Positions 19,160 through 54,991 of a stretch of DNA of 64,000 nucleotides are shown here, in pieces (positions within the stretch are counted from its first letter, which is position 1; every line of letters begins with the position of its first letter). A program made the position numbers and the translations under genes. Under the pieces are notes generated by a model. It was not told where the DNA came from and did no database searches. It saw only the letters and a program-made list of their open reading frames with translations. The stretch lies in sequence record OQ921332.1; one strand, written 5' to 3'. Source of the stretch: Escherichia phage vB_EcoP_PAS59.

Positions 19160-19190
19160 GGCTACCCATTTCGGGTGGCCTTTTCTTTTA
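19160..19190 (+). terminator. intrinsic terminator (8-bp stem with G-U, AUUUC loop, U-run)
   Basis: GGCUACCC-AUUUC-GGGUGGCC then UUUUCUUUU. Confidence 0.6.
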
Positions 19191-19210
19191 TGTAACCTAA
19201 GGTAATAAAT

Positions 19211-19462
19211 ATGTCTAAAGTAACTTATATCACTGTAACTGATTTCCTTCCTTCTCTGAACACAACTGAGAGTTATACTTTTCCTGTAGAAAATGTTACA
19301 AGCTCTGTTGAGATGATTCAGTTTAACAAAACAACAGCTCGTACTAATGTAACCCTTCGTGGCCCTGATGGCAAGTTCATCTCCTTCCGTGATAAGGGTG
19401 TTCCTAAGCGTATTGCTAAATCTATTGAAAATCTGAAACCTTTCCCCAACTTTGGTGCATAA
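19211..19462 (+). CDS. small protein, tandem paralog A
   Basis: 'KTTARTNVTLRGPDGKFISFRD...NLKPFP'. Confidence 0.45.
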   Translation: MSKVTYITVTDFLPSLNTTESYTFPVENVTSSVEMIQFNKTTARTNVTLRGPDGKFISFRDKGVPKRIAKSIENLKPFPNFGA

Positions 19463-19721
19463 TATGAAGATTAGCTTAATCCAAATTCGTGATCATCTCT
19501 TTAATGGTGACGCTCAGACTCATGACTACAAGGTTAATCAAGGACAACACCCTACCAATCACCTGATTGGAGGGATTTCTTTATTGCCTAATAAAACAGC
19601 ACGGACTAATGTAATGATTCGTGGTAAGGATGGTAAATTCCTCTCTTATCGTGACCCTGAAATCTGTGCTATTGTTCGTACAGCCATGAACAACCTAAAA
19701 CCATTCCCGACAGTGGAGTAA
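19452..19721 (+). CDS. small protein, tandem paralog B
   Basis: 'KTARTNVMIRGKDGKFLSYRD...NLKPFP'. Confidence 0.45.
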   Translation: MVHNMKISLIQIRDHLFNGDAQTHDYKVNQGQHPTNHLIGGISLLPNKTARTNVMIRGKDGKFLSYRDPEICAIVRTAMNNLKPFPTVE

Positions 19722-19724
19722 GTT

Positions 19725-20075
19725 ATGCCAGTACCTCAACGCCTAGAACGTCACTGCGTTCTCAAATGGGACAATATTCATGACAACCTCTCTAGTCAAG
19801 AGTTTCGTCAGTTTATTGAATTGACAGCGAAGATTAACCGAAACCGACCAGCTCGAAATTATGTGGTGGTTAGTGACAAGTATCCAGAGCTGTATGAGCA
19901 GGTGTGGGGTATGAAACTTGCACAAGTTCAGAGGAACAGTAACGAACGGAGAGAAGCTCGTAGACAGAGAGCAGAAGATATTCCAGCAGTCTTTTATGTG
20001 GATGAAGCGGAATCCTACGAACAGTTAGATATTGTTGAGGATAACCAAGCGTTCACTGATTTAATATACCGATAA
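19725..20075 (+). CDS. hypothetical protein
   Basis: ORF only. Confidence 0.4.
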   Translation: MPVPQRLERHCVLKWDNIHDNLSSQEFRQFIELTAKINRNRPARNYVVVSDKYPELYEQVWGMKLAQVQRNSNERREARRQRAEDIPAVFYVDEAESYEQLDIVEDNQAFTDLIYR

Positions 20076-20088
20076 CTATAAGGAGTGG

Positions 20089-21783
20089 GTGATGGATAAC
20101 CCTGATAAGTTACCTTTCATAACGGAGATGACAGTCGCTGATATAATCTCAAAACAGGCGAAGCATGGAGTCAACTTCAACAGAAGAAACGCTCGGTGGT
20201 TTGTTCATCTTCTCAAAGAGATTATTGTCAATATTGATAAAGAACTGATTCCTCTCCTCCCCAAAATGCGGGTGGATGGTTCAACTTATTCTAAACCTTT
20301 TAAGAAATCAGGTGCTTTACAGAAGTGGCCTCAGCTCTATTGCGATAGGGTTGGTCTTAAAAGAGAAGATATCGGTGGGGCGTTTACTTGCGTTGAGTAT
20401 GTAGATTTTGACCCATCAAAAGATGCACGTATTAAAGAAGCCTTGATGGATGAAGGTTTTATACCTCCAGAGTGGAATTATTCTAAGAAACCTTGGAATA
20501 CTTTTGAAATTCGTAAAGCTATGAAGAAGTATGGTACATACTCTGCATGGTATTCTGCTTGGATTCGAGGTAACGCTAAAGAGAAACAGACAGCAGAGAT
20601 GATAGATGCTGATATCCGAAGGTTTTTGGATAAGCACTTCCGTTATCACACTGTCAATTATATGAAAGCCTATGTCAGCGGTTTAGGTCTTAACCCTAAC
20701 AGGAAGAAGCCTGTAACCTTTGATGAAATCAAAAAAGCTTTGGCTACATCAAACAAGTGGCCTACAGCCCCTACAAACCTTGAGGAGACTCTTGAAGAGG
20801 GGCTTGGGGGTGAACTAGGGGGTGTAGGAAGTTTGCTTAAGAGACGCGTTGTAGCGGCTCACAGGCTAGGTTTGATTAGCGGGCTTATCGACAAGGAACG
20901 TAAAGATGGTAAACTGTCCGCCGAAGCTAATAGCTGCGCTACTCCGACATTTCGTTTTAAACATCGCATTGTTGTTAATATTCCTTCTCGCGGTTTGTTT
21001 GGTCACGAGTGCCGCAGTCTTTTTCAATCTGACTATTCCTCAGACGATAGTCATAACCATCCTTTCATCATTACCAACCATATCCCTGATGGGTGTTACG
21101 TACGAAAGGGTACTAACATTATCTACGAAATGGGAAAACCGGGCAAGAAAGACAAACCAATAGGTGCTTATAAATTTTATGTACCTGCTGGTCGTGAAGT
21201 CTTCTTAGGTTATGATGGCTCTGGTCTTGAGCTGAGGATGCTTGCTCATTACCTTATCAAAGAGTGTCGTGAGATGCTCGCTGAAGCAGAGCGGGAAAAC
21301 AACCCAGCTAAGAAACGGGAAGCTGAACGCGGTCTAGCTTCTGCTGTTATGTACAGAGATATTCTTTTAGAAGGGGATATTCACTCACATAACCAAAAAC
21401 TTGCTGGCCTTCCTACTCGTGATAATGCTAAAACGTTTATCTACGCATTCAACTACGGAGCTGGTGACGCTAAGTTAGGAAGCATCGTAGGTGGTGGCTC
21501 TGATGAAGGGGCTGTCATGAGGGCAAGATTCTTAGCAGAGAATCCTTGTATTGCAATTCTTATTGAACGTATGACAGAGAAAGCACAAAGTGGATACATC
21601 TACGGTGTGGATGGACGTCGTATTACAATGAGGAGGGATGCAACTGGAAAGGTTATGGTTCATAAAGCCTTAAACACCCTCTTACAGAGCGCTGGGGCGA
21701 TTGTTATGAAGTATGCAATGCTATTCCTTAATAAATGGATTGAGCGTGATGGTGTTCGTTGTGCGAAGGTTATTGACATGCAT
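20089..21783 (+). CDS. DNA polymerase (family A, T7-like), polymerase domain exon 1
   Basis: Motif A 'YDGSGLELRMLAHY', motif B 'RDNAKTFIYAFNYGAGDAKLG', 'ALNTLLQSAGA' as in T7 gp5; frame runs into intron (stop at 21811). Confidence 0.8.
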
Positions 21784-22390
21784 AAACTTCATTGTGCATG
21801 TAAAAGTTGGTGAACTCGGTGAAACCCGACCATTAAGTTGAGGGCAATACCGAGCTAAGCTATTAGGAGGTGATATGGCTAAGAAAGATCTAGTGTTAGA
21901 AACTACTGACACAGGATGTATCATCCCTATCTCACACAAACTTAATAAAGATGGTTACTTCAGAAAGGTAATAGATGGCAAATGGGTCATGTATCACCGA
22001 TACGTCATGGAAGAAAAGTTTGGAAAGATTCCTGATGGGTTTGAAGTAAACCATAAATGCAAGAACAGAGCTTGCTGTAACACAGACCACCTAGAGATTC
22101 TATGGGGGAGTGCTCATGCAATAGAATCCAATACAGGTAGAAACAGAGAAAGACAGGAAGCTGCTAAAGAATTCTGGCTTAATAATGAATGTACCGGTGT
22201 TGCTCTTGCGGAAAGATTTGGTGTGAGCTTTGGAATCGCTTGTAGATGGATTCGAAAGTGGAAAGTGTAGAGACTATCCTTTGGGAGTAGGGGGTTAACA
22301 GGGAAACCCTCGAAGCGCCAACAACAGCAAATTAGCTATGCTGTTATGATATAGTCCGATACCCGAAGTAATTTGGGAATAACATAAATG
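21784..22390 (+). mobile_element. group I intron (IA-like) carrying an HNH endonuclease ORF
   Basis: 5' exon ends in U; P1 pairing of AUGCAU (21778-83) with GUGCAU (21794-99); R-like 'AGAGACUAUC' (about 22266-75) and S-like 'AUGAUAUAGUCC' (about 22346-58); terminal G at 22390. Confidence 0.6.
21875..22270 (+). CDS. intron-encoded HNH homing endonuclease
   Basis: 'EVNHKCKNRACCNTDHLEILWGS'; AGGAGG before ATG. Confidence 0.7.
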   Translation: MAKKDLVLETTDTGCIIPISHKLNKDGYFRKVIDGKWVMYHRYVMEEKFGKIPDGFEVNHKCKNRACCNTDHLEILWGSAHAIESNTGRNRERQEAAKEFWLNNECTGVALAERFGVSFGIACRWIRKWKV

Positions 22391-22543: not shown

Positions 22544-22560
22544 TTTGTAGTGGAGGAATA

Positions 22561-23107: not shown

Positions 23108-23353
23108 ATGATGACTTTAACATCTAAAGAATTAAAAGAGACTTTGGAAACAACTGAAGGTAAGCAATTCTTTGTTGCACAGATTCATTCTATGGGCAAA
23201 GATTCACTACGTCAGGCTTTGTATGAACTAACTACTGCGGTTCTTCAAACAGAAGCTGACGCTGAAGAAGCTCTAATTAAGCTAGAAGCCGCTCAGGCTG
23301 AAATTAATGGTTTGAAAGTTCGTATCAGTGAACTGGAAACACAGAATAAATAA
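23108..23353 (+). CDS. hypothetical coiled-coil protein
   Basis: ORF followed by terminator. Confidence 0.4.
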   Translation: MMTLTSKELKETLETTEGKQFFVAQIHSMGKDSLRQALYELTTAVLQTEADAEEALIKLEAAQAEINGLKVRISELETQNK

Positions 23354-23378
23354 GCTACCTTCGGGTGGCTTTTCTTGT
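23353..23378 (+). terminator. intrinsic terminator AGCUACC-UUCG-GGUGGCU plus U-run
   Basis: Read directly; after ORF 23108-23353. Confidence 0.6.
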
Positions 23379-23391
23379 CTAAGAGGCTAGT

Positions 23392-23784
23392 ATGAATATT
23401 GGTTTAGATTATGATGATACTTTTACAGTGGACAAGGAGATGTGGACCCACATTGTAGGTCTTATGAAATCTCGTGGACATGATGTTCGTATCGTCACTT
23501 ATCGTTTTGCTCAGCCCAATGGGTATTCAAATGAAGAGCTTCTAGCAGATGCAGCAAGTCTAGATATTCCTGTTATCTTTTGCAACGGTGTTCAGAAGGA
23601 TTCTGTCACTCAGAGCTTGGGTTTCTTTGTGGATGTTTGGATTGATGACTTCCCTGTCGGTATCCCTAAAATGGACCACCTAGATGGAATGCTAAAGGGT
23701 GTAAGACTTAATGACCTTAAAGCAGCACCTCCGGTAGAAATAGCCTCTCCTGTGTACTCTGAAGAGCCTCTGGTGATACGATGA
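23392..23784 (+). CDS. hypothetical protein
   Basis: ORF only. Confidence 0.4.
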   Translation: MNIGLDYDDTFTVDKEMWTHIVGLMKSRGHDVRIVTYRFAQPNGYSNEELLADAASLDIPVIFCNGVQKDSVTQSLGFFVDVWIDDFPVGIPKMDHLDGMLKGVRLNDLKAAPPVEIASPVYSEEPLVIR

Positions 23785-25370: not shown

Positions 25371-25605
25371 ACCACCTGTTGTTTATAAAGATAGTCTCAG
25401 AGATCAATACAGTAAGATGTTAAAAGATCAAGCTGAATCTAACTTACTTTATCAGCGAATAGTAGAAGAATCTAGATTAAAAGGAATGATGGAGTGGTAA
25501 CTTATGTTCTTTACTTCTTAGCTTTCTTAGGAATAATCTTTTTATCTATTATTATTGAATTTGGTTTAAGTAAGTTAGTTAACTATTTAGGTAGTAAGTA
25601 ATTAA

Positions 25606-25671
25606 TATTCTTTTAAATAGAGAATCAAAGTCCCTAGGAGTCCCCACAACCTAAATCAAGGATTCCTTAAT
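25606..25671. repeat. perfect 11-bp inverted repeat AAATAGAGAAT/ATTCTCTATTT with 44-bp spacer
   Basis: Read directly; lies in a 415-bp non-coding AT-rich region. Confidence 0.6.
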
Positions 25672-25775
25672 TCTCTATTTTTATCTCGCAGGTGTCTCCT
25701 GCCCTTCGGTACTTGCAAGGGTTACAATGATTGCCCAATATACAAGCCTGCAATAGCTTTACTAGCTATACCATA

Positions 25776-25784
25776 TATACATTA
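25776..25784 (-). promoter_or_regulatory. TAATGTATA element in leftward orientation (no obvious target gene)
   Basis: Plus-strand TATACATTA. Confidence 0.25.
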
Positions 25785-25846
25785 CTACTTGTCATTATCT
25801 ACTACCAAAAAGGTTATAGTATAATAGAACCTTATCTGTATAGGTG

Positions 25847-25855
25847 TAATGTATA
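25847..25855 (+). promoter_or_regulatory. TAATGTATA promoter-like element upstream of SSB-like gene
   Basis: Exact 9-mer about 60 bp before ATG 25915; a perfect TATAAT also at 25820-25825. Confidence 0.4.
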
Positions 25856-25914
25856 TAGTATACAAACCGCTCAAAGAGAGCAACAATCTTAAATCTATAT
25901 AAGGAAATATTAAT

Positions 25915-26655
25915 ATGTCTATGATCCCTGAACTGTCTGTATCCCGTAAATCCAACTACGATGTAATCCCTGATGGTGAGTACGAAGCACGTATTGTTCG
26001 TGTTGTAGGTTTGGGTGTTCACAATCGTGACCCTTGGATTGACCCTAAGACCAAAGCAGTTACCCCTAAGAACCCAGCTTTCCGTATGGACTTAGCTTTT
26101 GAGCTGATTGGCGTAGATGCAACAGGGACTGATAATGAAGGCAAACCTCTGGACCCTCGTCCTGCTTGCCAGTTTAAATCTTTCGATGTAAACCCACGAG
26201 CTAAGAACTCTGGTATTCTAAATCTGATTAAAATGATCGACCCAAGTGTTCAAGCACTGAAAGGTGATTTGGGTTGGTTTAAAGATATGCTGTTAGGTCA
26301 GCCTGTTAACATTCTGGTTAACTCTTACACCAATAAAGCTGGTGAGAAGAAAAACTCCATTAAAAGCATCACTCCAATCCCGACTAAATATCGTGACGCG
26401 GTAGGTGCTCCTCGTAGTGAGTTGATCTTCTTCGAACCGTATGCTGAGACTGACGCTAACTTAGCTGCTTATCAAGCAATCTTCCCATTCCAACGTAACC
26501 TCTTGACTCAAGCTAACGATGCTAAGAATATCCCTCTGGCTGGTCGTGAAGTTACTAAAGCTTCTGATACTGAACAGAAAGATGCTACTCCAAGCATCCC
26601 TACCATTAATGAAGAGCCGCAATCAACCTTTGAAGAGGATGATTCGCCTTTCTAA
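25915..26655 (+). CDS. single-stranded DNA-binding protein (putative)
   Basis: Acidic C-terminal tail ending '...EEDDSPF' (as in SSB DDDIPF); sits after a large regulatory region and before a terminator. Confidence 0.5.
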   Translation: MSMIPELSVSRKSNYDVIPDGEYEARIVRVVGLGVHNRDPWIDPKTKAVTPKNPAFRMDLAFELIGVDATGTDNEGKPLDPRPACQFKSFDVNPRAKNSGILNLIKMIDPSVQALKGDLGWFKDMLLGQPVNILVNSYTNKAGEKKNSIKSITPIPTKYRDAVGAPRSELIFFEPYAETDANLAAYQAIFPFQRNLLTQANDAKNIPLAGREVTKASDTEQKDATPSIPTINEEPQSTFEEDDSPF

Positions 26656-26677: not shown

Positions 26678-26702
26678 AGCCACCTTCGGGTGGCTTTTTT
26701 CG
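26678..26702 (+). terminator. intrinsic terminator AGCCACC-UUCG-GGUGGCU plus UUUUUU
   Basis: Read directly; after the SSB-like gene. Confidence 0.65.
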
Positions 26703-31956: not shown

Positions 31957-31994
31957 AAGCCCCCTTCCTTTTCAGGTTGGGGGCTTTTCTCGTT
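31957..31994. terminator. putative bidirectional terminator between the convergent blocks
   Basis: GAAGCCCC / GGGGCUUU stem with T-run on + strand and A-run upstream. Confidence 0.45.
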
Positions 31995-36440: not shown

Positions 36441-36476
36441 AACGTCTCCTTATAAATAAAAATGTCCTACCTCCTA

Positions 36477-36485
36477 TATACATTA
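36477..36485 (-). promoter_or_regulatory. TAATGTATA promoter-like element upstream of the 1481-aa gene
   Basis: Plus-strand TATACATTA in the 70-bp gap between 36511 and 36440. Confidence 0.4.
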
Positions 36486-36510
36486 TAAGAGATAGGACTT
36501 AGGTCTTAGA

Positions 36511-38178
36511 TTACTGTAACATCCAACTTGTGTCCGCTGGAGCAGAAGAAAGAGCACCTGTTAATCGAGGATTTGTAGCATCCCCACCAACAGCTGCTTC
36601 AGCTTCACTCTCAAACGTACCGAATGGGTCATAGAAACCAGCAGAAGGAATAGCACGGTTGACAAGAGCTGTCGCTCGTTTCTTATCCATACCAGAGCCA
36701 ATATACGCTTCGATCGTTGCTTTCTTAGCATCCTTAACACCCTTCTCAGCGGAAGTAGCACCAACAGTTGCCTGCTTACGAGCATATGACAGAGCAGCAT
36801 CAGAGGGACGATAACCTGCTTTAAGTGACCATGTATTACCCAACTTAACAAAGATGGACGGGTCTTCTGCAAAGTGGGCTAAGTCATCAGCTTGGAGAGA
36901 ACGGTTAGCACCGATTTCTGCCCTTGCGGAGTTCATAATAGCCTGCATGTAAGCAGAACGAGCAGTTTGGTAATCCTTATCCTTAACAGCTTTGTCTGCC
37001 AAATCCAAGTCCTTATGAGACTGGTTGAACAGACCTGCTTTCTCTGCCCACTGCTTAGCAACTGTACCTTCTGCTGTGTTCTGAGCCAGACGAACTTCTT
37101 TCGGATTGAAAGTAAAGCTCTGAGCAGCTTTCTCTGCACGATCTGCTTTAACTTGATCACGATATCCAATAAGTTCTTTCTGTTTCTCAAACTGAGCATT
37201 AGCACGTTCTTCAGCAGCACGGCGAGTTTCAGCAGCACGCTCCCGCATAGAGTTCTCTTGAATCTGCTGACGTCTATCCCATTCACGGTTAGCACGTTCT
37301 TCATCTTGAGCAGCAAGAGCCATTTTCTCCTGAGGACTAATTTGACGCATTTTAAGAAGAGAAGGATCTCCTGAAGCAATTGCAGCAGCAACCGAGTCTT
37401 GAGAGTAGCCTTGCTCTAACAGAGCGTCACGATTAGCTTCTAACTGTTGTTTAGTTTCATCCTGAGCAGCCAAACCAGAGCCAATCTGGAAAGCTTCAAT
37501 AGGGGACTTACCAGACATAATAGAAAGACCAACACCCATCAACCCTGTATAGAAACTAGACTTCTGATAGAAAGGTTGTTTTTGAAGTTCATTCCAAGCT
37601 TGAGCTGGGTCTTTGGCTTTAGCAACTTCCATAATATCATTATTGATACGCTCTTGATCTTTAGCACGGGTAGCACCAGCCATACCTTCAGGAGCAGGAT
37701 TACTATTAGCTAGAGTATTAATAACGTTCTGAGCCTGTTCCACCTGAACTGGAGAAAACTCTTTATCTGTTTCTTCCAGAGGTTTACGAGGGGGGGTAAC
37801 AGGAAGAGGATCACTAGGCATTAATCCAGCAGCCTGTAAACCTTCATCAGAGGAAAGATCTGGATTAGCCACAGCAGGAGCTGGTTCACCGATATCAATA
37901 CCCTGAAGGCTCGTAGGGGTTCCTTGATTCTCTGATTCCAGAAGTCTCTGTCTGAATCCTGGGTTTAACATAGCCTCTTGATCTTCCTGAGCAGTAGCAA
38001 CAAGAGAAGATAAACCTACAGGAGAGGCAGGAGGTCTCTGACTATACATTGAAACATCAGCAGCTGGGTAAGCAGGTCTTGCCATGTATGGAGAGGCCGA
38101 AGCGGCCCCTTGTTTAACACCATAAATCTGATTTCTTGGGTCTTGACTGCGAAGATACGCATAAGAAGTTTGTTGCAT
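36511..38178 (-). CDS. internal virion protein (putative)
   Basis: 555-aa ORF in the structural block; no motif. Confidence 0.35.
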   Translation of the reverse strand: MQQTSYAYLRSQDPRNQIYGVKQGAASASPYMARPAYPAADVSMYSQRPPASPVGLSSLVATAQEDQEAMLNPGFRQRLLESENQGTPTSLQGIDIGEPAPAVANPDLSSDEGLQAAGLMPSDPLPVTPPRKPLEETDKEFSPVQVEQAQNVINTLANSNPAPEGMAGATRAKDQERINNDIMEVAKAKDPAQAWNELQKQPFYQKSSFYTGLMGVGLSIMSGKSPIEAFQIGSGLAAQDETKQQLEANRDALLEQGYSQDSVAAAIASGDPSLLKMRQISPQEKMALAAQDEERANREWDRRQQIQENSMRERAAETRRAAEERANAQFEKQKELIGYRDQVKADRAEKAAQSFTFNPKEVRLAQNTAEGTVAKQWAEKAGLFNQSHKDLDLADKAVKDKDYQTARSAYMQAIMNSARAEIGANRSLQADDLAHFAEDPSIFVKLGNTWSLKAGYRPSDAALSYARKQATVGATSAEKGVKDAKKATIEAYIGSGMDKKRATALVNRAIPSAGFYDPFGTFESEAEAAVGGDATNPRLTGALSSAPADTSWMLQ

Positions 38179-43560: not shown

Positions 43561-43587
43561 AAACAATAAAAGGGGCCGAAGCCCCTT
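43561..43587 (-). terminator. hairpin GGGGC-UUCG-GCCCC followed by U-rich tract
   Basis: Immediately after stop of 43592-46591. Confidence 0.45.
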
Positions 43588-47943: not shown

Positions 47944-48162
47944 TTAAGGAAGAATTTTTCTCAGAGCTGAAGATTGAGCATCTGGGCAAATAACAACCAA
48001 ATTATTTTGAATGGTCCTTTGTTTACATTGAGAACTAAGCTTCTCTACGGGAGCTTCTATAACAGAATGAGAGCTTACCGCATTTACAGGCACTGCCGTA
48101 GAAATCACAAAACCAGTCCCTAAGCAAGCAAGACCATAAGTTACTTGTTTCATCATTTTCAT
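47944..48162 (-). CDS. small hydrophobic-N-terminus protein (possible holin or signal-anchored protein)
   Basis: 'VTYGLACLGTGFVISTAVPVNA'; abuts lysozyme gene. Confidence 0.3.
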   Translation of the reverse strand: MKMMKQVTYGLACLGTGFVISTAVPVNAVSSHSVIEAPVEKLSSQCKQRTIQNNLVVICPDAQSSALRKILP

Positions 48163-48229
48163 TTTCTTCTCCTTTTCGTTTTCCTTTTGGATATAATAGT
48201 TTCATTACTTATTCATCAGTTTCACTCCT

Positions 48230-48249
48230 AAAAGCCCCCGAAGGGGCTG
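48230..48249 (-). terminator. hairpin AGCCCC-UUCG-GGGGCU (weak U-tract)
   Basis: After stop of 48254-50377. Confidence 0.3.
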
Positions 48250-48253: not shown

Positions 48254-50377
48254 TCATTTAGCAGCTTTCAGCGTAGCAACCTCCTTCTTCAACTCATCAA
48301 CCTGCTTCATCAACTCTAAAATAGCTTCATGATGAAGTGCCGCAGCAACACCATAAGTGTCTACAGACTTTGTATCTTTAACAATCGAACCATCTTGAAG
48401 CTCTGTATCCCCGGTAACTTTGACAGCATCAGGGAAGATTTTTTCCACATCTTGTGCAATAAACCCATAACCCACTTTATCACCGGATGTTTTAAGTTTC
48501 CAAGAAACACCTTTTATCTCTTTCATCTTGTCCAAAGGTTTTTCTATTCTAGAAATATCATCTTTTATTCTTTCATCAGAATCAGTGCTCCAACCACCCG
48601 GGCAAACAGCTCTTCCATCCTTGAGAAATTGAAAATGTTTTAGATTAGTTCCGGCTGTAGATGTTGATATGGTAACGTCACCATCACGCTCTGTGTAAAG
48701 TCTTCCATATATAGCAGTGTTAGCGCTGTTTTTAAATTCAATGAAAGATTGATTATTGTTGTTACCTACAAAAGTTGCTTTACCTTCACGAGAAATTAAC
48801 TGACCTTTAGCATCAACGTTCCCACTGCGAACAATTAAGTTAGTTGGAACGTTTAAGTTACCATCACTGCCAAAATCAAAGGCTTCATTAGCACCCGAAG
48901 TTTTATTGAAAACAGTAACACGGGCAGCATAGGTAGATCCAACAGTCCCTACCATCCTGAACGAAGCATACCCTTCAACATCAGTGCCAGTTTTATATTC
49001 AGATATAATAGAGCCGCCGTTAATAGAAGTTCCAGTGTTTGGAAGAACACTATCACTGTTAATGACGGACCAAGAGGTATTAGCTGCTACGAAACCACCT
49101 TTAGCTCGAATAACCCAAACACCTACGAAAGAGTTAGGGCGGATTTCTGATACGTTTTGTCGTCCGTAAACGGCGCTGGAGTTGGATGCTTTGAAGTTAA
49201 CAGCAAGACCCCTGTTGGAACCAGTTCCTGCTCCAGTACTTGCCTGCAAGAGTTGAAGGTCGAGACCTGTGTCGGTCACATAAAGAGAACCACTCGCAGA
49301 GTTTGCAACAAATAGCCTAGCAAAGTTACTACTCGACCCAGTAGATACAGCACCAGTAATCTCCGGGGCCGCAGACTCGTGTATCTTCTGGGTAAAATCC
49401 CCACTACCCCGACCGAACAATCCTTTTAGAGAACCGCTTTGAACACCATTCTTATCTGGAACACGGAAAGTAGTAGAACCGTCCCCTAAAGAGTATTGAG
49501 AGCGTTTAAGAGGGTCTGCCAGCCAATCAGCATCAGAGATAGGTGTTATCATTTGCGCATATGCCCAAAGCTCTGGATAATCTGTACGAGAAAGAAGTTG
49601 ACCATCTGACGGGATATCATTAGATGGGATATAAGCCCTACTGTCAATTAAACGGAAATCACCAATGTTGAAATTGGAGATACCATTCATGGTAGGGCCA
49701 CCAGAACCTCCACCACTGTTACGAAGCTGCCTTAGTGTGACTGCATCATAGTCACCTACAGCATCTGCTACAGTAACCGGTTGCTGAAAGGTAACTTTCT
49801 CGGTAAATTGTTTGATATCAGAGTTGATACCAGTTCGAGTTACACCAATGGTGCGTCCTTTGGAATCTTTTACATAGGAACCGATTGAAGCGAAAGGTAA
49901 ATCCTCAATCTCAGGACGATAACGTTTAGAGTAAATAGGATACTTGGTTTCTACACCACCATCATTCAAATCTACAACTTGAAGACGACCAGCAGTATGA
50001 ACTTCTACTCCCTGAACAGAAGAAGCATAGCTCCCAATCTTAATTGCGTTCTCTGGTGTAACTTTAATCATATCTACAGATTCTACACCATTAGCCCCTT
50101 CTGACCGGAAAGGTACATCATTAGCTACAAATGGATCAGCTTTGAATAAAGCACCTTCCATAACAGGGTCAATAGCATCCGTAACATATTGCTTGGTTGC
50201 ACCTTCTGCCTTGGTCATATAAGTTGCGCTCGCATCAGACTTCTGGAGGTACTTGTCAGTCAGATCAATAGCACCAGCAACACCATCTACAGTAGATACG
50301 CCCACCACAGCAGCATCACGAGTCACAACCACATGTGGCATCATAATGCCAGATTTGGGCATTAATTCTCTAGACAT
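48254..50377 (-). CDS. tail fiber with collar-like domain and C-terminal intramolecular chaperone (S74-like) domain
   Basis: 'DAVGDYDAVTLRQL', 'DGQLLSRTDYPELWAYAQ...GSTTFRVPDKNGVQ', C-terminal 'DERIKDDISRIEKP...GFIAQDVEKIFPDAV...'. Confidence 0.6.
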   Translation of the reverse strand: MSRELMPKSGIMMPHVVVTRDAAVVGVSTVDGVAGAIDLTDKYLQKSDASATYMTKAEGATKQYVTDAIDPVMEGALFKADPFVANDVPFRSEGANGVESVDMIKVTPENAIKIGSYASSVQGVEVHTAGRLQVVDLNDGGVETKYPIYSKRYRPEIEDLPFASIGSYVKDSKGRTIGVTRTGINSDIKQFTEKVTFQQPVTVADAVGDYDAVTLRQLRNSGGGSGGPTMNGISNFNIGDFRLIDSRAYIPSNDIPSDGQLLSRTDYPELWAYAQMITPISDADWLADPLKRSQYSLGDGSTTFRVPDKNGVQSGSLKGLFGRGSGDFTQKIHESAAPEITGAVSTGSSSNFARLFVANSASGSLYVTDTGLDLQLLQASTGAGTGSNRGLAVNFKASNSSAVYGRQNVSEIRPNSFVGVWVIRAKGGFVAANTSWSVINSDSVLPNTGTSINGGSIISEYKTGTDVEGYASFRMVGTVGSTYAARVTVFNKTSGANEAFDFGSDGNLNVPTNLIVRSGNVDAKGQLISREGKATFVGNNNNQSFIEFKNSANTAIYGRLYTERDGDVTISTSTAGTNLKHFQFLKDGRAVCPGGWSTDSDERIKDDISRIEKPLDKMKEIKGVSWKLKTSGDKVGYGFIAQDVEKIFPDAVKVTGDTELQDGSIVKDTKSVDTYGVAAALHHEAILELMKQVDELKKEVATLKAAK

Positions 50378-50390: not shown

Positions 50391-50410
50391 TAAAGCTCCC
50401 CGAAGGGAGC
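50391..50410 (-). terminator. hairpin GCUCCC-UUCG-GGGAGC between the two fiber genes
   Basis: Followed by UUUAAGGAG (SD of the next gene), so more likely a stabilising hairpin than a full terminator. Confidence 0.3.
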
Positions 50411-50419
50411 ATTGTTAGT

Positions 50420-53400
50420 TTATTTAGCAGCCAGCTTAGCTTCCAGCTCTTCTACTTTCTCAGACAAGCACTTAATTGCTGCAAGAGCATCTAATAAAAG
50501 CGGGTTAGTGTCGAGAGTCATAACTCCACTTTTTTCCGCACTGTGAACATACTGAGGGTCAACCTGTTCTGCCTGTTGTGCAATCACCCCTCGACGTGGA
50601 GATTTCTTCTCATCACTCTTATATGTAAAATTCTTAAACTCAAGAGCTTTAATGTTACTTAGAGCGACACTTAAATCTAAATCGTCTCCAATGTCCTTAA
50701 CACTCGCGTCAGAGGTTCCAGCATTCTGAAGAGTTGTCCACGGAAGGTTGGTTTTGAGTTCTTTTGGATTGTTGTTTATGGTGTTAGTTCTAACATAAGC
50801 CGAACCATTCAAGCTTATCCAAAACTGGCAGATTCTGTTTACGGCATAAGAAGTTTGGAAACCTCCCCCATTTGCAGCTGCCCACGGCGAATTACCATCC
50901 GAGTCTGTTATGAACTGGTTATAGTTAGAATCAGGTAACACTGTACCACCCTGAACACCAACACCATAATCATCCTTCACCAAAACACGACCCCTAGGAG
51001 TCTCTATATTCCCAGCTTCAGTGAAATCAAAAGTTGTACCTTTCGAAGAAGTTTTATTATAAACCCCAATTCTTGCAGAGTATGAACCACCAACAATGCC
51101 TTGCATTTTGAACTCAGCTGATCCTTCTGGCTCTGTGCCAACCCTATAATCGGATATCAAGTTGCCACCTGTAACGGTTGTACCGTCCGACGGTCTTATG
51201 TCATCGCTATTAATAACAGACCAAGAAGTGTTAGCTGCAATGAAAGCACCCTTAGCACGAATCACCCATACACCGACGAAAGATCTAGGCCTAACTTCGT
51301 CTGCCTGTCCATAAATAGGGTTATAAGAATTAGCATTAAAATACACATAAGTGTATCGGTTTGGTGTGCTGGTAGCCGCTGTCGTAACAAATCCGTTTGT
51401 GAGATCAGTCTCGCGAACACTAAAGGCATCTGTCCCGCTGGATATTACCGCCCTCCCGTTTGCATCAACAGCACCAATACGCCCTGATATGTTAGGCGCG
51501 GCACTTTCGTAAACGTTACCCGCTGTCAATAATCCACCCTGATCGCCCCGACCAAATAGCCCCGGAATTGACCCGCTTTGAACCCCGTTGCGGTCAGGAA
51601 CTCGGAAGGTCGTTGTTCCGTTCCCTGAAGAGTATTTACCCCTCTGTTGGGGGTCTGCCAACCAAGCTGAATCCGTTATGGGGGTGAGCATTTGAGCATA
51701 TGCCCATAACTCAGGGTAATCAGCACGGTTAAGAAGCTGTCCGTCTGATGTTACATCATTTGGGTGAATAAAAGCACGACTGTCTACTAGTCGGAAGTCT
51801 CCAATATTGAAGTTGGAGATACCATTCATTGTAGCCCCACCACCGCCACCACCTTGGTTCTTCAACTGACGATAAGTAACAGCGTCGTAATCACCTACAG
51901 CATCAGGAACAGTAACCGGTTGCTGGAAAGTAGCTTTCTGTGTAAACGTTTTAAGATCAGAGTTTACACCGTCAGTAGTTACAGCAGCAGCACCTATAGC
52001 AGCAGGTGTTGGCTTATTGTTCTCTGCATAGAACAAATAGTCCCCAGAGGGTGTTGACAGATAAGGTACACTGGAACTAGCAATAACTGTACGGGCTAAG
52101 TGATCACCAAACACAGATGAATCTGAACCACTTCTAGAAACCATGTTGACTTGACTGCTGTCATCTTTAATACGTCTTAAAGAGATTCCATTGTTCAGAA
52201 CCAAGTTACCATCCATGATACCACCAGCTTTGGCAATAGCTCCAATTGTTGCAGGGGTGAGATTTACATTACCAGTATTGTCATTAGGGGATAACCCATT
52301 AACTGTTACAATATAAGGCTTCTGAGCTTGCACTTGGCCTTTGTATTCAGTATCTGTAGCCGAGTTAGGAGATCGAATTGTTTCACCACCAGTCCAGTCT
52401 GGGAGTCGGATGTTAACATAGTTAGTAGAATCTGCATCAGTAATACCGTCAGCTTGCTTACCCCAAGAGAAGTATTGCTTAGCACCTGCTTGCCATTCTG
52501 TTTCACTGACAACAGGGAGCTGACCACTGAGTAAAGATGGACCCAAATCTGCTGCCGATTCTTTAGAAACAAGACGACCATCAGCAGGAAGAATCCCGGG
52601 ATATGAAATATTCTTAGCTGGGTCATAAGGGAACATTACCATTTCACCAAGATACAGAGAAGGGTTTCCTGTAGGAATGGTGATATCAATGTTACCAGTG
52701 GAGTCTGGGATTCTAGAGTTAACAGTAACAACGCGAGGTTCTGTTTTCAAAGGCTCTAAGATTTTATCAGAAGCCACGGTGTAGAATGAATACTTAGTAT
52801 CTTCCCAAACTAGAATTGTCTCACCAGCCTTTCGGTTAATCGCATCAGCATCAGCATCAGCTTTAGTATTATAGGCTTTGATGAACCTGTCAACTTTCTT
52901 GTCGGTTTCTTCTTTACTGTAAGAAGCTACGTTTTCTACTTTATCCAACCCTACCGTGCTTTTATCAATAGTCAAAGAGACGTTACCGCTTTCGGCAGGT
53001 CCACCATTAACACTGATATCTCTAACAGAAGGGATTAGGTTTGCAATGTTTTCCAAAGTGGTTTTATGGACTGTGTTATCAGTTTGGTCTACGTAAAAAC
53101 CTAAATCCCCAGCGACAGGAACACCAGTATCAACAGTATTTAAATCTTTAACCGATCCATCTTTACCCGGAAGACCCTCAGGAATACCAAGGCTGATCTT
53201 ACCAGTGGTGGGGTCAAAATCTCCAGTAGCAGGTTGTCCCGGACTTAAAGTTGTCACTTCTACAGTCATTCCTAACAAGATATCCAGCTGTTTGTCAACT
53301 TCTACTAACTTTTGATTGATTAATGCGATAGCATTATTGGCATTAGCAACGGCAGCGTTAGATTGAGCAACAAGTTGCATCAAACGAGCATCTTGATCTC

Positions 53401-53641
53401 TGAAGTCTTGTTTAAGAGCTTCAATATCTTCACGTAACAGAACACCTTGCTGGTAGAGCTTCTCAACTTCTGCAATCAGATCATCAACCGTACCAAATTT
53501 AGCCTCTGCCAACAGTGACCAATATTTAGCATCAGCAGCATATTCAGCTGCTTGCTTATAGGCTCCAATAGAGCCTTCTGTTGCACCAAACTGACCAACG
53601 TTGTTAGGATTAGTTGGCTCTTGGTTGTTATAAACGATCAT
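50420..53641 (-). CDS. large tail fiber/spike, paralog of 48254-50377 with about 530-aa N-terminal extension
   Basis: Shares about 300 aa of collinear blocks with the neighbour; C-terminal S74-like domain 'GVIAQQAEQVDPQYV...'. Confidence 0.6.
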   Translation of the reverse strand: MIVYNNQEPTNPNNVGQFGATEGSIGAYKQAAEYAADAKYWSLLAEAKFGTVDDLIAEVEKLYQQGVLLREDIEALKQDFRDQDARLMQLVAQSNAAVANANNAIALINQKLVEVDKQLDILLGMTVEVTTLSPGQPATGDFDPTTGKISLGIPEGLPGKDGSVKDLNTVDTGVPVAGDLGFYVDQTDNTVHKTTLENIANLIPSVRDISVNGGPAESGNVSLTIDKSTVGLDKVENVASYSKEETDKKVDRFIKAYNTKADADADAINRKAGETILVWEDTKYSFYTVASDKILEPLKTEPRVVTVNSRIPDSTGNIDITIPTGNPSLYLGEMVMFPYDPAKNISYPGILPADGRLVSKESAADLGPSLLSGQLPVVSETEWQAGAKQYFSWGKQADGITDADSTNYVNIRLPDWTGGETIRSPNSATDTEYKGQVQAQKPYIVTVNGLSPNDNTGNVNLTPATIGAIAKAGGIMDGNLVLNNGISLRRIKDDSSQVNMVSRSGSDSSVFGDHLARTVIASSSVPYLSTPSGDYLFYAENNKPTPAAIGAAAVTTDGVNSDLKTFTQKATFQQPVTVPDAVGDYDAVTYRQLKNQGGGGGGATMNGISNFNIGDFRLVDSRAFIHPNDVTSDGQLLNRADYPELWAYAQMLTPITDSAWLADPQQRGKYSSGNGTTTFRVPDRNGVQSGSIPGLFGRGDQGGLLTAGNVYESAAPNISGRIGAVDANGRAVISSGTDAFSVRETDLTNGFVTTAATSTPNRYTYVYFNANSYNPIYGQADEVRPRSFVGVWVIRAKGAFIAANTSWSVINSDDIRPSDGTTVTGGNLISDYRVGTEPEGSAEFKMQGIVGGSYSARIGVYNKTSSKGTTFDFTEAGNIETPRGRVLVKDDYGVGVQGGTVLPDSNYNQFITDSDGNSPWAAANGGGFQTSYAVNRICQFWISLNGSAYVRTNTINNNPKELKTNLPWTTLQNAGTSDASVKDIGDDLDLSVALSNIKALEFKNFTYKSDEKKSPRRGVIAQQAEQVDPQYVHSAEKSGVMTLDTNPLLLDALAAIKCLSEKVEELEAKLAAK

Positions 53642-53650
53642 AATCTCTCC

Positions 53651-54421
53651 TTAACTGTAATGTTTAATTCCGTATAATTCACGAGAGCTGTGAAGACGGT
53701 CGATAGTTCGAGGGATAACTAGAGGAGAACCTGAATACTCAGCTTTCTTGCTCTGTTCAACTACTTCATCTAAGATGGCTTTCCCTAAAGCCGACCACTT
53801 CTGAACCCCATTATCATCTTGAACAAACAAGCTTGCATGACGTAATGTGAAATATAGAAGAAGCTCTGGAGCTATTGTTAAAATTGCACTTGTATCAGAA
53901 TCCTCATGAAACTCCGGAGGGTCTGCATAATAGCTAAGAATTACCGAATTCTCCGCTGGAATAAGAGGGCTTCCATCATCAGGGTAGACCGGAGTATCGG
54001 CGTTGATGGCTGGGTAGAACAGGAACCGACTTCCCAACCTAGTAAAACTCACCTCTCCCTGATTCCATTTAGTTGGGTTTACTGAGTTATTTCTTTTCAG
54101 CCAATCTAACTCTTCTGGAGAAGTTACTCGGAACATATGTCCATTACTTGCTCTCATCATCCACTGAGCTTCTAAGTAGTCTGGTGGAATAAAAGCCACA
54201 CCATCTTTAATATCTAAATATACTTCTTTTTCCAGAGGAGGAATTCGTAAGTTACGATAGATTTCTTTCTCTGCAAAGTTAATAAAGTTTGGAATCTGAT
54301 TAACAAATTCATCATCATCCCTGTCAGCCCAGAGGGACACAGCTTTCTTGAGCCATCCGTAGGTATTGATGGGATATTGAACGTCAGGCAACATAGGATA
54401 CCTCCTTCCAGTTTGTGCCAT
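53651..54421 (-). CDS. tail/adaptor structural protein (putative)
   Basis: Position between capsid and fibers. Confidence 0.3.
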   Translation of the reverse strand: MAQTGRRYPMLPDVQYPINTYGWLKKAVSLWADRDDDEFVNQIPNFINFAEKEIYRNLRIPPLEKEVYLDIKDGVAFIPPDYLEAQWMMRASNGHMFRVTSPEELDWLKRNNSVNPTKWNQGEVSFTRLGSRFLFYPAINADTPVYPDDGSPLIPAENSVILSYYADPPEFHEDSDTSAILTIAPELLLYFTLRHASLFVQDDNGVQKWSALGKAILDEVVEQSKKAEYSGSPLVIPRTIDRLHSSRELYGIKHYS

Positions 54422-54896
54422 TGATTATTAGGCTTATTGTGCTTGAAGAGACTCCAAACTTCCTAGCTAAAGCTCTAGCTCCGAACTGTCTGTCCCTCGG
54501 TTTATAGTTCTCTAAACAGAAAAGAACTTGTTCTTTAGTAAGTTTGGAATTAGGATTATCCTCAAGATTCCTTGGTGTTGAGAGTTTTGTTTCATAAGCA
54601 TGTACACAGTTTTCTTGTTGAGTACACCACTCTAGATTCTCAATCCTGTTGTCATCTTTTATTCCATTCTTATGGTTGACATACTCCTTCCCTTCTACTT
54701 TAGGAAGAAAGAGTTCAGCTATGACTCTATGTTCTAGGTAAGATTTCTTCTTGAAGGTTAACACACGATATCCCTTACTATTAATACATCCAGCACGTTG
54801 ACCTTTCTGTTTATTGAATATGTTACTCATAGACCAGAAAAGATGCCCTGTATTCGGGTTATATGTAAAAGCTCCTCTGAAATCTGGCATTGCCAT
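54384..54896 (-). CDS. HNH homing endonuclease with C-terminal HTH
   Basis: 'YVNHKNGIKDDNRIENLEWCTQQEN'; C-terminal 'ALARKFGVSSSTISLIINGTNWKEV'. Confidence 0.65.
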   Translation of the reverse strand: MAMPDFRGAFTYNPNTGHLFWSMSNIFNKQKGQRAGCINSKGYRVLTFKKKSYLEHRVIAELFLPKVEGKEYVNHKNGIKDDNRIENLEWCTQQENCVHAYETKLSTPRNLEDNPNSKLTKEQVLFCLENYKPRDRQFGARALARKFGVSSSTISLIINGTNWKEVSYVA

Positions 54897-54929
54897 AGGT
54901 TGTCCTCCTTGTTATATGTAGACAAAGAA

Positions 54930-54938
54930 TATACATTA
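54930..54938 (-). promoter_or_regulatory. TAATGTATA promoter-like element after the capsid terminator
   Basis: Plus-strand TATACATTA between terminator 54961-54991 and HNH start 54896. Confidence 0.4.
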
Positions 54939-54960
54939 CACACTAGCTTGTATAGGTCTT

Positions 54961-54991
54961 AAAACGAAAAAACCCCGCCCGAAGGCAGGGT
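54961..54991 (-). terminator. strong intrinsic terminator CCCUGCC-UUCG-GGCGGGG plus UUUUUUCGUUUU
   Basis: Immediately after the capsid/Ig-extension stop. Confidence 0.65.

Follow-up and report, generated by a model that had tools for sequence, protein, structure and literature searches.

Conserved UUCG-capped hairpins as probable intrinsic terminators and attenuators in a phiEco32-like coliphage

The window studied here, that is, the whole 64,000-nt stretch of DNA that was analyzed (Escherichia phage vB_EcoP_PAS59, OQ921332.1), is a phiEco32-like podovirus genome. We found that seven hairpins in this coliphage are real, are conserved, and lie at the ends of genes. Most likely, these gene-end hairpins stop or dampen transcription, and we consider it probable (roughly 0.8) that they serve the phage as Rho-independent (intrinsic) transcription terminators and attenuators. 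Phages of this type have no RNA polymerase of their own; the host core enzyme transcribes them, at first with sigma70 and later with the phage sigma factor gp36.

Folding and placement of the hairpins

The original prediction had reported seven hairpins, six of them (two on the + strand and four on the - strand) with a UUCG loop. All seven were present, the transcribed strand read UUCG in 6/6, and the ranges first quoted take in the U-tracts. The arms had also been described correctly: AGCUACC/GGUGGCU at 23353, AGCCACC/GGUGGCU at 26678, and the same arms around an AUUUC pentaloop at 19160 (GGCUACCC-AUUUC-GGGUGGCC). The elements and the promoter motifs that accompany them are the following.

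T19160, 19158-19191, + strand (exact stem 19158-19182): 10-bp hairpin AAGGCUACCC-AUUUC-GGGUGGCCUU with tract UUCUUUUAU; -17.4 kcal/mol, z -4.36; 7 U in the first 8 nt
T23353, 23352-23380, + strand (exact stem 23352-23371): AAGCUACC-UUCG-GGUGGCUU with UUCUUGUCU; -11.9 kcal/mol; 6 U of 8
T26678, 26678-26704, + strand (exact stem 26678-26695): AGCCACC-UUCG-GGUGGCU with UUUUUCGUU; -14.7 kcal/mol; 6 U of 8
T43570, 43558-43587, - strand (exact stem 43570-43587): AAGGGGC-UUCG-GCCCCUU with UUAUUGUUUAUA; -14.7 kcal/mol; 6 U of 8
T48233, 48229-48248, - strand (exact stem 48233-48248): AGCCCC-UUCG-GGGGCU with UUUA, then GGAG; -14.4 kcal/mol; 4 U of 8
T50395, 50392-50410, - strand (exact stem 50395-50410): GCUCCC-UUCG-GGGAGC with UUU, then AAGGAG, ATG at 50377; -12.0 kcal/mol; 3 U of 8, the shortest U-tract
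T54971, 54960-54993, - strand (exact stem 54970-54993): AGACCCUGCC-UUCG-GGCGGGGUUU with UUUCGUUUUA; -18.1 kcal/mol; 6 U of 8
Promoter motif, 18796-18804, + strand: TAATGTATA, opening the short unit that T19160 closes
Promoter motif, 25847-25855, + strand: TAATGTATA, opening the short unit that T26678 closes
P54930, 54930-54938, - strand: late promoter motif of the gp36 sigma type, an exact match to TAATGTATA, directly 3' of T54971

Folding energies, which had been suggested as a check, ranged from -11.9 to -18.1 kcal/mol; in every region the hairpin was the fold of lowest energy, and z-scores relative to shuffled sequences lay between -2.3 and -4.4. The stems of all seven are 6-10 bp long, and stems and loops have the G/C-rich form of an intrinsic terminator (~5-14 bp, 3-8 nt). 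A C-G pair closes each of the six UUCG loops, which are thus C(UUCG)G tetraloops of the UNCG class, 19160 being the exception. Hairpins with a TTCG loop and a stem of at least 6 bp occurred seven times in the window, whereas 200 dinucleotide-shuffled versions averaged 0.98 and never exceeded 4, and the motif SSCTTCGGSS occurred five times against 0.37 expected, a count reached in 0/100 shuffles.

The strand and position of the hairpins were equally consistent. The six UUCG hairpins all lie between genes with UUCG on the coding strand (6/6 for both), and the sense RNA, owing to G.U pairs, is 0.9-6 kcal/mol more stable than the antisense RNA. Each of the seven elements begins 0-25 nt past the stop codon of an ORF on the coding strand, where a terminator is expected. 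Compact G/C-rich intergenic hairpins on the coding strand number ~13 in the window, and the UUCG hairpins make up six of these.

U-tracts, short units and the late operon

The original prediction had mentioned several full U-tracts, and we counted 6-7 U in the first 8 nt after five elements (19160, 23353, 26678, 43570, and 54971), which to judge from sequence look like efficient intrinsic terminators. The usual tract of at least 5-6 U in 8 nt, 0-2 nt past the stem, is lacking at 48233 (4/8) and 50395 (3/8), and the short tails of these two were retained in all relatives, even where the stem had been swapped. On the + strand, T19160 closes a short unit that starts at promoter 18796 and includes a 105-aa ORF, and T26678 closes one that starts at promoter 25847 and includes a 246-aa gp40-like ORF. 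T23353 lies 3' of an 81-aa ORF and is followed by the Shine-Dalgarno sequence and ATG of the next gene at 23392. On the - strand, T54971 is found 3' of the gene for an Ig-like head protein (gp12-like), where it closes the capsid operon. The late promoter P54930 follows ~20 nt later, and T54971 and P54930 form a predicted terminator-promoter composite. The consensus of gp36 promoters is AATGTA, centred at -11.5 (PMC12276001), and the SU10 paper describes three late promoters, with a tAATGTAt promoter in the spacer orthologous to that of T54971/P54930.

The late operon spans ~18 kb between two AATGTA promoters, the one at 54930 where it starts and the following one at 36477, and it holds three of the elements. 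T50395 separates two tail-fibre genes (gp14-like and gp15-like), T48233 lies 3' of the 707-aa tail-fibre gene (gp15-like), and T43570 stands between the gene for a 999-aa Ig-like surface protein (gp19-like) and a tail-tip fibre gene (gp20-like), the protein downstream of it matching Pfam Phage_Tail_Tip. Because these three lie inside one late operon, read-through is required, so they should be leaky and act as attenuators, as stabilizers of 3' ends, or as both; T48233 is read as a leaky terminator or a 3' stabilizer. T43570 has a good U-tract yet is operon-internal, with no recognized promoter downstream, and thus it may be leakier than its sequence suggests, or a promoter may be missing from the map.

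It had been proposed that the hairpins between fibre genes are followed directly by ribosome-binding sites and are not strong terminators. The first part holds at T50395 (AAGGAG, 8 nt, ATG at 50377) and fails at T48233, where an AGGAG 3' of the hairpin precedes only a 3-codon mini-ORF and is replaced by AGUAG in Kuravirus relatives; the holin gene (47944-48162) starts ~70 nt downstream of T48233. The second part would follow for both hairpins from their 3-4 U of 8 and their position in the late operon.

From established terminator biology we infer termination itself, its efficiency, and a stabilizing role of the hairpins. At each cistron end, a short G/C-rich stem (6-10 bp) with a C(UUCG)G tetraloop as an extra-stable, fast-folding cap would form in the RNA exit channel, the weak rU:dA hybrid at the U-tract after the stem would lead to release of the transcript, and the same hairpin would then keep 3'-to-5' exonucleases away from the 3' end left by release or processing. 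We predict that the five elements with 6-7 U terminate efficiently and delimit units (promoter 18796-gene-T19160; promoter 25847-gene-T26678; capsid operon-T54971, then promoter 54930). At 48233 and 50395, the short U-tracts (3-4 U) adjoining a Shine-Dalgarno-like sequence would be deliberate, and partial termination is predicted there and at 43570, which would grade expression along the late operon and stabilize the upstream message.

It is also conceivable, and we hold this as a tentative alternative, that 48233, 50395, and perhaps 43570 cause no termination and are purely boundaries of RNA stability or processing. RNase E would cleave A/U-rich single-stranded RNA beside the UUCG hairpin, which would then cap either the upstream product at its 3' end or the downstream product at its 5' end, so that the segments decay with different half-lives. 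Such A/U-rich single-stranded flanks are present on either side of 48233 and 50395, the short U-tracts (3-4 U) are the ones kept in all relatives, the arrangement of hairpin, UUU, and Shine-Dalgarno sequence recurs in phage 7-11 and in T-even phages, and the elements are operon-internal, with downstream holin, lysozyme, tail tip, and ejection protein genes that must be expressed. However, 3-4 U after a hairpin of -11 to -12 kcal/mol usually give some termination, ARNold calls the orthologue of 48233 in WFI101126 a terminator, and our data fit zero and partial termination alike. RNase III requires about two helical turns of double-stranded RNA (~20 bp or more). Processing by this enzyme, which had been raised for the fibre-gene hairpins, is therefore not supported, because the stems are only 6-10 bp, and stem length excludes RNase III from the boundary scheme as well.

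Conservation, stem turnover and shared arms

Considering 14 relatives with flank identities of roughly 70-99%, we found that the hairpin sites were positionally conserved and that exact UUCG was present in 63/79 site-genome instances, on 14 distinct stems. Stems were swapped or compensatorily changed among the relatives while the UUCG loop stayed; compensatory double changes were observed at 23353, 43570, 48233, 50395, and 54971, and RNAalifold found the stems independently. T54971 had UUCG in 14/14 genomes over three stem alleles, with compensatory double changes at 2 pairs (RNAalifold, as for the next two elements). Three unrelated stems at T48233 (GCCCC, CCCCGC, and CCCUC) all carried UUCG, with compensatory changes at 2/5 pairs, and T50395 occurred as GCUCCC, GCCCUC, or AACCCC, with compensatory changes at 4/6 pairs. 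T23353 showed an A-U to G-C change with the loop kept (GCUACC/GGUGGC and GCUGCC/GGCGGC), while T43570 in Kuravirus occurred with an inserted base pair (GGGAGC/GCUCCC) and with a UUCGU pentaloop. The loop of T26678 was UUCG in seven genomes and UCCG in four, both of the UNCG class; loop variants in the relatives comprised UUAG (IMEP8 and PE006), UCCG, UUCGU, and CUUC. This pattern indicates that the UUCG loop has been retained under selection while the stem varied. The loops of T19160 were AUUUC, AAUA, AAAU, and UAAUCA, UUCG being found in none of the relatives, and this element belongs to the same stem/tail cassette family but has no UUCG loop.

The same orthologous elements are annotated as predicted terminators in existing records. 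WFI101126 (MK373770, ARNold) marks the counterparts of 19160, 23353, 26678, 43570, 48233, and 54971, the 50395 element being absent there, where a single fibre gene is found; SU7 (MZ342906) marks those of 19160 and 23353, and SU10 (NC_027395) that of 54971. These are software calls (ARNold or FindTerm) that are silent on the common UUCG loop and differ between records; thus the SU7 record, also made with ARNold, leaves four of the late-strand orthologues unmarked as terminators. No 3'-end mapping or Term-seq for phiEco32-like phages was found in the literature searched, a set outside which the primary phiEco32 transcription papers fall.

The original prediction took the shared arms to imply a duplicated module, and this must be divided. 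The hairpin cores with their UUU are generic: at least 120 unrelated viral contigs contain GCCACCTTCGGGTGGCTTT, at least 120 contain GGGGCTTCGGCCCCTTT, and Salmonella phage 7-11 has an identical AAGGGGCTTCGGCCCCTT at a site that is not orthologous. Shared arms can therefore be due to convergence, which weakens the claim; among the matches listed, the same hairpins in ~240 unrelated viral contexts were followed by U-rich tails. On the other hand, the longer 25-nt cassette GCTRCCTTCGGGYGGCTTTTCTTGT is confined to phiEco32-like contigs and was found at two loci: it occupies the 23353 site, and NJ01 and PE006 carry it at the 54971 site. This pair looks like genuine copying between loci. Arms and tail are common to 19160, 23353, 26678, and alternative alleles of 54971; the SU10 allele of 19160 matches the 54971 allele of ECBP2 in both arms and in the tail, with a different loop.

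These relationships suggest a further role, which we regard as rather unlikely: the cassettes might also be short conserved linkers where recombination between divergent phiEco32-like genomes takes place, with tail-fibre and Ig-like gene modules being swapped and cassettes copied between loci. Something similar has been proposed for PeSLs, the composite promoter-terminator motifs of T4-like phages (Arbiol 2010; Comeau 2014, PMC4122927), and this precedent, the restriction of the 25-nt cassette to one lineage at two loci, and the SU10 and ECBP2 alleles all fit the proposal. Homology breakpoints adjoin the hairpins at 4/7 sites: nucleotide homology ends just upstream and persists downstream in 11/14 genomes for 48233, in most genomes for 50395, in all Kuravirus for 23353, and in EK010 and TH43 for 54971. 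Some relatives also carry extra genes (an HNH endonuclease and small ORFs), inserted directly 5' of terminators. Nevertheless, a breakpoint near an intergenic hairpin is expected without any causal role, because fibre C-termini are variable and the N-terminus of the next gene is functionally conserved. Moreover, the hairpins are only 16-24 nt, short for homologous recombination, and convergence on generic hairpins is demonstrably common.

It is very improbable that the hairpins, as translational operators or antiterminator targets for example, are bound by a specific protein of the phage or the host that reads the UUCG loop and arms in RNA. The + strand trio with GCYACC/GGUGGC arms, the - strand group with C-rich/G-rich arms, and a loop that stays while stems turn over could be understood in this way. 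But unrelated stems are freely substituted at the same site, against sequence-specific recognition of the arms, identical hairpins occur in hundreds of unrelated phages (among the matches listed), thermodynamic stability alone explains retention of UUCG, and we identified no candidate protein. It is hardly credible that the hairpins arose as palindromes by chance or act only in the DNA (as cruciforms, origins, or packaging sites), without a function in RNA, since nothing beyond their being inverted repeats speaks for it and it is opposed by their enrichment over shuffles, the sense orientation in 6/6, G.U pairs that are A.C mismatches on the other strand, strict placement between stop codon and next start, and the compensatory changes.

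Comparison with known terminators

As terminators and attenuators, the elements resemble known systems. The Rho-independent terminators of E. coli, outlined statistically by d'Aubenton Carafa et al. (1990, as cited in PMC3972237), likewise combine a G/C-rich hairpin, whose loop of 3-8 nt is often a stable tetraloop (UUCG or GNRA), with a U-tract that follows at once, past a stop codon. Compared with that outline, 48233 and 50395 differ in having only 3-4 U adjoining a Shine-Dalgarno-like sequence, and three of our elements differ in being operon-internal.

The PeSLs offer a second comparison. A stem-loop beside a promoter is seen here at T54971/P54930, at the 62358 hairpin with P62343, and at the 36464-36498 hairpin, which encloses P36477; this adjacency thus involves T54971 and two non-UUCG late hairpins (62358 and 36464), and not the other six elements. 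Junctions of conserved and variable genes and similar cassettes at several loci are also common to both. However, PeSLs are longer, well-conserved units of early promoter and stem-loop that are repeated many times in hyperplastic regions, whereas only 3-4 elements here share arms, the promoters are gp36-type, and a role in recombination is putative.

The closest likeness is with T-even phages. UUCG and GAAA tetraloop hairpins are described in PMC3972237 (citing Tuerk 1988 and d'Aubenton Carafa 1990) as rho-independent terminators present in T4 mRNA, and the T4/T-even C(UUCG)G hairpins share with ours the C-G-closed UUCG, short G/C-rich stems, intergenic and sense placement, and U-rich tails. 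T-even phages (Straboviridae) belong to a family unrelated to these Gordonclarkvirinae podoviruses, the loci are non-homologous, and transcription here, unlike in T-even phages, relies on the host core enzyme with phage sigma gp36; the present elements are predicted terminators. UUCG-capped terminators are ordinary and already known, because T4-type phages carry them at similar frequency and those of close relatives have been annotated. With one script, the density of UUCG hairpins was 10.0 per 100 kb in T-even phage TH12, 14 in TH54, and 9.4 in the window. T-even genomes also reuse arms at several loci (GGGAGAC/GUCUCCC six times), and some of their copies have only UUU and then a Shine-Dalgarno-like GGAG or GGGG, as at the fibre-gene elements here.

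Positions, folding, and enrichment of the hairpins

The 19-27 kb region of the window matched phiEco32-like podoviruses (Gordonclarkvirinae), with identities of 93-96% to SU7, EK010, and E20-1; identity to phiEco32 itself was lower, about 77%. Middle and replication genes occupied the + strand as far as about 31.9 kb, and late, structural, and lysis genes the - strand from 32.0 kb on. The bidirectional terminator where the two blocks meet has A/U tracts on either side and is marked as a terminator in the records of SU7, SU10, and WFI101126. We found all seven terminator-like hairpins (T plus position) at the predicted places and with the sequences described, and each was the minimum-energy fold of its own region. 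Their upstream genes were named from the phiEco32 map.

Table. Terminator elements, with folding energies and loops tallied over the window and its relatives
T19160, + strand: 3' of gp58-like 105-aa ORF; -17.4 kcal/mol; AUUUC, AAUA, AAAU, UAAUCA, never UUCG
T23353, + strand: 3' of gp48-like 81-aa ORF; -11.9 kcal/mol; UUCG 9, UUAG 2
T26678, + strand: 3' of gp40-like 246-aa ORF; -14.7 kcal/mol; UUCG 7, UCCG 4
31957-31990, bidirectional terminator at the meeting point of the + and - gene blocks: AAGAAGCCCCC, 14-nt loop, GGGGGCUUUUCU
T43570, - strand: 3' of gp19-like Ig-domain surface protein gene; -14.7 kcal/mol; UUCG 7, UUCGU 8
T48233, - strand: 3' of gp15-like tail fibre gene; -14.4 kcal/mol; UUCG 14, UUAG 1
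T50395, - strand: 3' of gp14-like tail fibre gene; -12.0 kcal/mol; UUCG 12, CUUC 1
T54971, - strand: 3' of gp12-like Ig-domain head protein gene; -18.1 kcal/mol; UUCG 14/14

When the folding energies of the seven elements were checked, at most 5 of 200 shuffles reached the native value. Hairpins with a TTCG loop and a stem of at least 6 bp were enriched (7 in the window vs. 0.98 expected, maximum 4, in 200 dinucleotide shuffles), as was the pattern SSCTTCGGSS (5 observed, 0.37 expected). The strong TTCG-loop hairpins were only the six for which UUCG had been described, that is, all but T19160; all six were intergenic and carried UUCG on the coding strand. They represented 6 of approximately 13 compact, G/C-rich hairpins in a census limited to intergenic sequence and the coding strand, the remainder having loops such as GAUAA, GAAA, AUUUC, and CUCGU; an energy scan of the whole window gave hundreds of weak hairpins in coding regions. 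Several stems contained G.U pairs, which become A.C mismatches in antisense RNA, and the sense hairpins were more stable than the antisense ones by 0.9-6 kcal/mol. Thus, the feature is strand-specific and belongs to the RNA level. An Rfam search of the window at gathering thresholds gave no match, which is uninformative because terminators are not Rfam families. The occurrence of CGCTTCGGCC at 38095 was taken as chance, since it lies within a coding region, and the hairpin at 57888-57904 was ruled out as a further terminator, being located within a small gp9-like ORF.

Conservation of the loop among relatives

The sites were placed in 14 relatives, all GenBank phage records, by anchors in the flanking sequence; IMG/VR, queried with a neighbouring protein, yielded only five relatives. 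All seven sites were positionally conserved in the 14. In the loop tallies, four calls of the script were corrected by hand (phiEco32 at 23353 and 50395, IMEP8 and PE006 at 48233). In total, UUCG capped 14 different stems. Compensatory substitutions were found in the stem at 23353 (GCUACC/GGUGGC vs. GCUGCC/GGCGGC) and among the alleles at 50395 (GCUCCC/GGGAGC, GCCCUC/GAGGGC, and AACCCC/GGGGUU). The variation at 43570 was a base-pair insertion, three stem alleles occurred at 54971, and the stem at 48233 was swapped outright among relatives (GCCCC, CCCCGC, CCCUC). Covariation was read site by site from the flank-anchored alignments, since pooling sequences that had been selected by pairing would be circular. 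Without any structure hint, RNAalifold recovered the stems of 48233, 50395, and 54971, with compensatory double changes in 2 of 5, 4 of 6, and 2 pairs, respectively. Because the loop was kept while the stems changed in a compensatory manner, the hairpin and its loop are under selection and the exact stem sequence is not. On these comparative and folding data, the elements are a real, selected feature, best read as intrinsic terminators or attenuators with the C(UUCG)G cap typical of coliphages.

The UUAG variants were one identical C-to-A change at different sites (23353 in IMEP8 and PE006, and 48233 also in PE006), which should abolish the UNCG fold. They could reflect either a real relaxation or a sequencing artefact.

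Known counterparts, shared arms, and mosaic junctions

UUCG-capped terminators have reportedly been known in coliphages since work on T4 in 1988. With one script applied to all genomes, UUCG-capped, U-tailed hairpins were counted as follows.

Table. Density of UUCG-capped, U-tailed hairpins
Window (64 kb): 6, or 9.4 per 100 kb
T-even phage TH12 (whole, 170 kb): 17, or 10.0 per 100 kb
T-even phage TH54 (first 50 kb): 7, or 14 per 100 kb
phiEco32 (45 kb): 4, or 8.9 per 100 kb
TH26, Chaseviridae (50 kb): 1, or 2.0 per 100 kb

Random viral contigs had 1.4 per 100 kb, under a filter stricter than that of the one-script comparison. In the T-even genomes, as in the window, the same arms recur at several loci, and some copies are followed by UUU and then GGAG or GGGG. 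In TH12 (MT446390), GGGAGAC/GUCUCCC arms with a UUCG loop occurred at six loci, and several copies had UUU only and then GGGG or GGAG, the same layout of hairpin, short U-tract, and Shine-Dalgarno (SD) sequence as at the fibre genes of the window. Hairpins with UUCG and GAAA tetraloops have long been known from T4 mRNA and from rho-independent terminators (PMC3972237, citing Tuerk 1988 and d'Aubenton Carafa 1990). Furthermore, the GenBank record of WFI101126, whose annotation was made with ARNold (PMC6563267), places "terminator" features precisely over the orthologues of 19160, 23353, 26678, 43570, 48233, and 54971, and the records of SU7 and SU10 mark subsets of these. The UUCG-capped elements are therefore ordinary and already known, being annotated in relatives, and current understanding is unchallenged. 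In practice the gain is modest, and one part of it is to correct terminator annotations that differ between the records of relatives.

The original prediction took the shared arms as a duplicated module. This held only for a longer, lineage-specific cassette, the hairpin cores being generic. The cores GGGGCTTCGGCCCCTTT and GCCACCTTCGGGTGGCTTT each had at least 120 matches in unrelated IMG/VR contigs; the same stem gave 26 matches with the composition-matched loop UCUG and at least 120 with GAAA. Among the matches listed, U-rich tails followed these hairpins in approximately 240 unrelated contexts, 13-37% of which had an SD with a start codon no more than 20 nt after the hairpin, compared with a background of 4.5%. 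An identical AAGGGGCTTCGGCCCCTT also occurred at a nonorthologous site in Salmonella phage 7-11, which belongs to another family (56% identity of the major capsid protein). Convergence on a small number of optimal designs can thus produce shared arms. The longer cassette GCTRCCTTCGGGYGGCTTTTCTTGT, in contrast to the generic cores, was confined in IMG/VR to the five phiEco32-like contigs. Most genomes of the lineage have it at 23353, whereas NJ01 and PE006 have it at 54971. The SU10 allele at 19160 and the ECBP2 allele at 54971 have both arms and the tail in common, the loop alone being different. Some copying of cassettes between loci within the phiEco32-like lineage is therefore likely.

The AAGGGGCTTCGGCCCCTT copy of phage 7-11 (21072-21089, + strand), equal to the T43570 hairpin, lies on the coding strand 3' of the gene for a putative DNA injection protein; UUUAAGGAGG, with UUU and an SD sequence, comes next. 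The GenBank record has a terminator here, but assigns it to the other strand.

In many cases the hairpin marked the end of nucleotide homology to relatives, with similarity persisting downstream. On the upstream side, similarity was gone in 11 of 14 genomes at 48233, in most genomes at 50395, in all Kuravirus at 23353, and in EK010 and TH43 at 54971; extra genes were inserted just upstream of terminators in some relatives. These junctions resemble PeSL motifs, composites of promoter and terminator through which T4-like phages have been proposed to shuffle modules (PMC4122927). The cassettes might also be portable recombination linkers for swaps of host-range modules between phiEco32-like genomes; crossovers would then fall in short conserved sequences, either a terminator alone or a terminator with a promoter, that border tail-fibre, Ig-like, and small accessory genes on their 3' side. 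In that case the cassettes would also be copyable between loci, and the 23353-type cassette that NJ01 and PE006 have at 54971 would be such a copy. However, the breaks in homology are equally expected from variable fibre C-termini beside conserved N-termini, and we consider the linker role unlikely, a minority possibility beside that of terminators or attenuators. For work in which host-range modules are engineered or traced in these therapeutic-candidate phages, it matters that hairpins and mosaic junctions coincide.

Promoters and hairpins inside the late operon

The phage sigma factor gp36 reads the middle and late promoters of the phage, whose consensus is AATGTA, with its centre at -11.5 (PMC12276001); for SU10, three late tAATGTAt promoters are given in the genome's own paper. 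Exact copies of TAATGTATA were found on the coding strand at 18796, 25847, 36477, and 54930, and one-mismatch copies at 14257 and 62343. The promoter at 18796 would drive the 105-aa gene as far as T19160, and that at 25847 the 246-aa gene as far as T26678. A terminator-like hairpin lay just upstream of each of the three late promoters (P plus position), enclosing the promoter in the case of P36477:

Hairpin at 62358, - strand, with P62343
T54971, - strand, with P54930
Hairpin at 36464-36498, - strand, around P36477

T50395, T48233, and T43570 lie in the stretch of approximately 18 kb from P54930 to P36477; since this stretch carries the genes for fibres, holin, lysozyme, tail tip, and ejection proteins, the three hairpins cannot be complete terminators. 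As predicted, several elements had full U-tracts (6-7 U among the first 8 nt after the stem in five), and those at 48233 and 50395 were short (4 and 3 U of 8, respectively). The short U-tract was kept in every relative, even with a replaced stem. Position and conserved U-tract together support the suggestion that the fibre-gene hairpins are not strong terminators, and leakiness is plausible. The three may act by partial termination, by 3'-end stabilisation only, or by both; RNase III processing is excluded by stems of 6-10 bp. The conserved short U-tracts offer a reasonable hypothesis for graded expression of the late operon. What results is a cleaner map of transcription units for the phiEco32-like group: three late promoters, each insulated by an upstream predicted terminator, two short units in the middle region, each made up of promoter, gene, and terminator, and three putatively leaky hairpins inside the long tail/lysis operon. 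A sigma70-like TATAAT just past T43570 was ruled out as a hidden promoter, having no -35 element and not being conserved in Kuravirus.

A ribosome-binding site directly after T48233 was not borne out for the holin gene: the AGGAG there precedes a 3-codon mini-ORF, the holin gene starting 70 nt further on, and is AGUAG in Kuravirus relatives. Between the hairpin and the holin gene (47944-48162), the segment 48163-48232 (- strand) has this AGGAG and then the mini-ORF AUGAAUAAGUAA, whose stop overlaps a second AUG (UAAUG). The GUAAUGAAACUA block, kept in all relatives, opens a 56-aa ORF (48035-48205), which runs across the start of the holin gene in another frame.

Other observations concern the promoters. 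The 36464-36498 element (- strand) is a 15-bp A/T-rich hairpin, GUCCUAUCUCUUAUA-AUGUA-UAUAGGAGGUAGGAC (-19.7 kcal/mol), followed by AUUUUUAUUU, and the TAATGTATA inside it (36477-36485) drives the 1481-aa gp26-like gene. It is an overlapping terminator-promoter composite, in which read-through RNA can form the hairpin and transcripts begun inside cannot. Another composite, at 62332-62399 (- strand), has the hairpin GCCUCC-UCUCGUG-GGAGGC with UUUUUGUUAU, 8 nt later TAATGTAGA (62343-62351), and then AAGGAG and the ATG at 62331. Directly 3' of the TAATGTATA at 18796 is a hairpin at 18804-18835 (+ strand, -14.2 kcal/mol) that pairs ACUCCUUA with UAAGGAGU, the SD sequence of the 18837 ORF. The predicted start is approximately 9 nt past AATGTA (about 18811); RNA initiated there would not contain the 5' arm, and its SD would stay accessible, whereas in read-through RNA the SD would be sequestered. 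Two exact copies of TAATGTATA diverge in the 25500-25915 intergenic region, at 25776-25784 (-) and 25847-25855 (+), the former opposing the direction of every neighbouring gene. Finally, the late promoter P54930 and the gp13-like gene flank a 170-aa HNH endonuclease ORF (54384-54896, - strand; Pfam HNH_3, E 5e-14). At this place phiEco32 and SU7 have only about 100 nt, and the ORF looks like a homing-endonuclease insertion just past the promoter.
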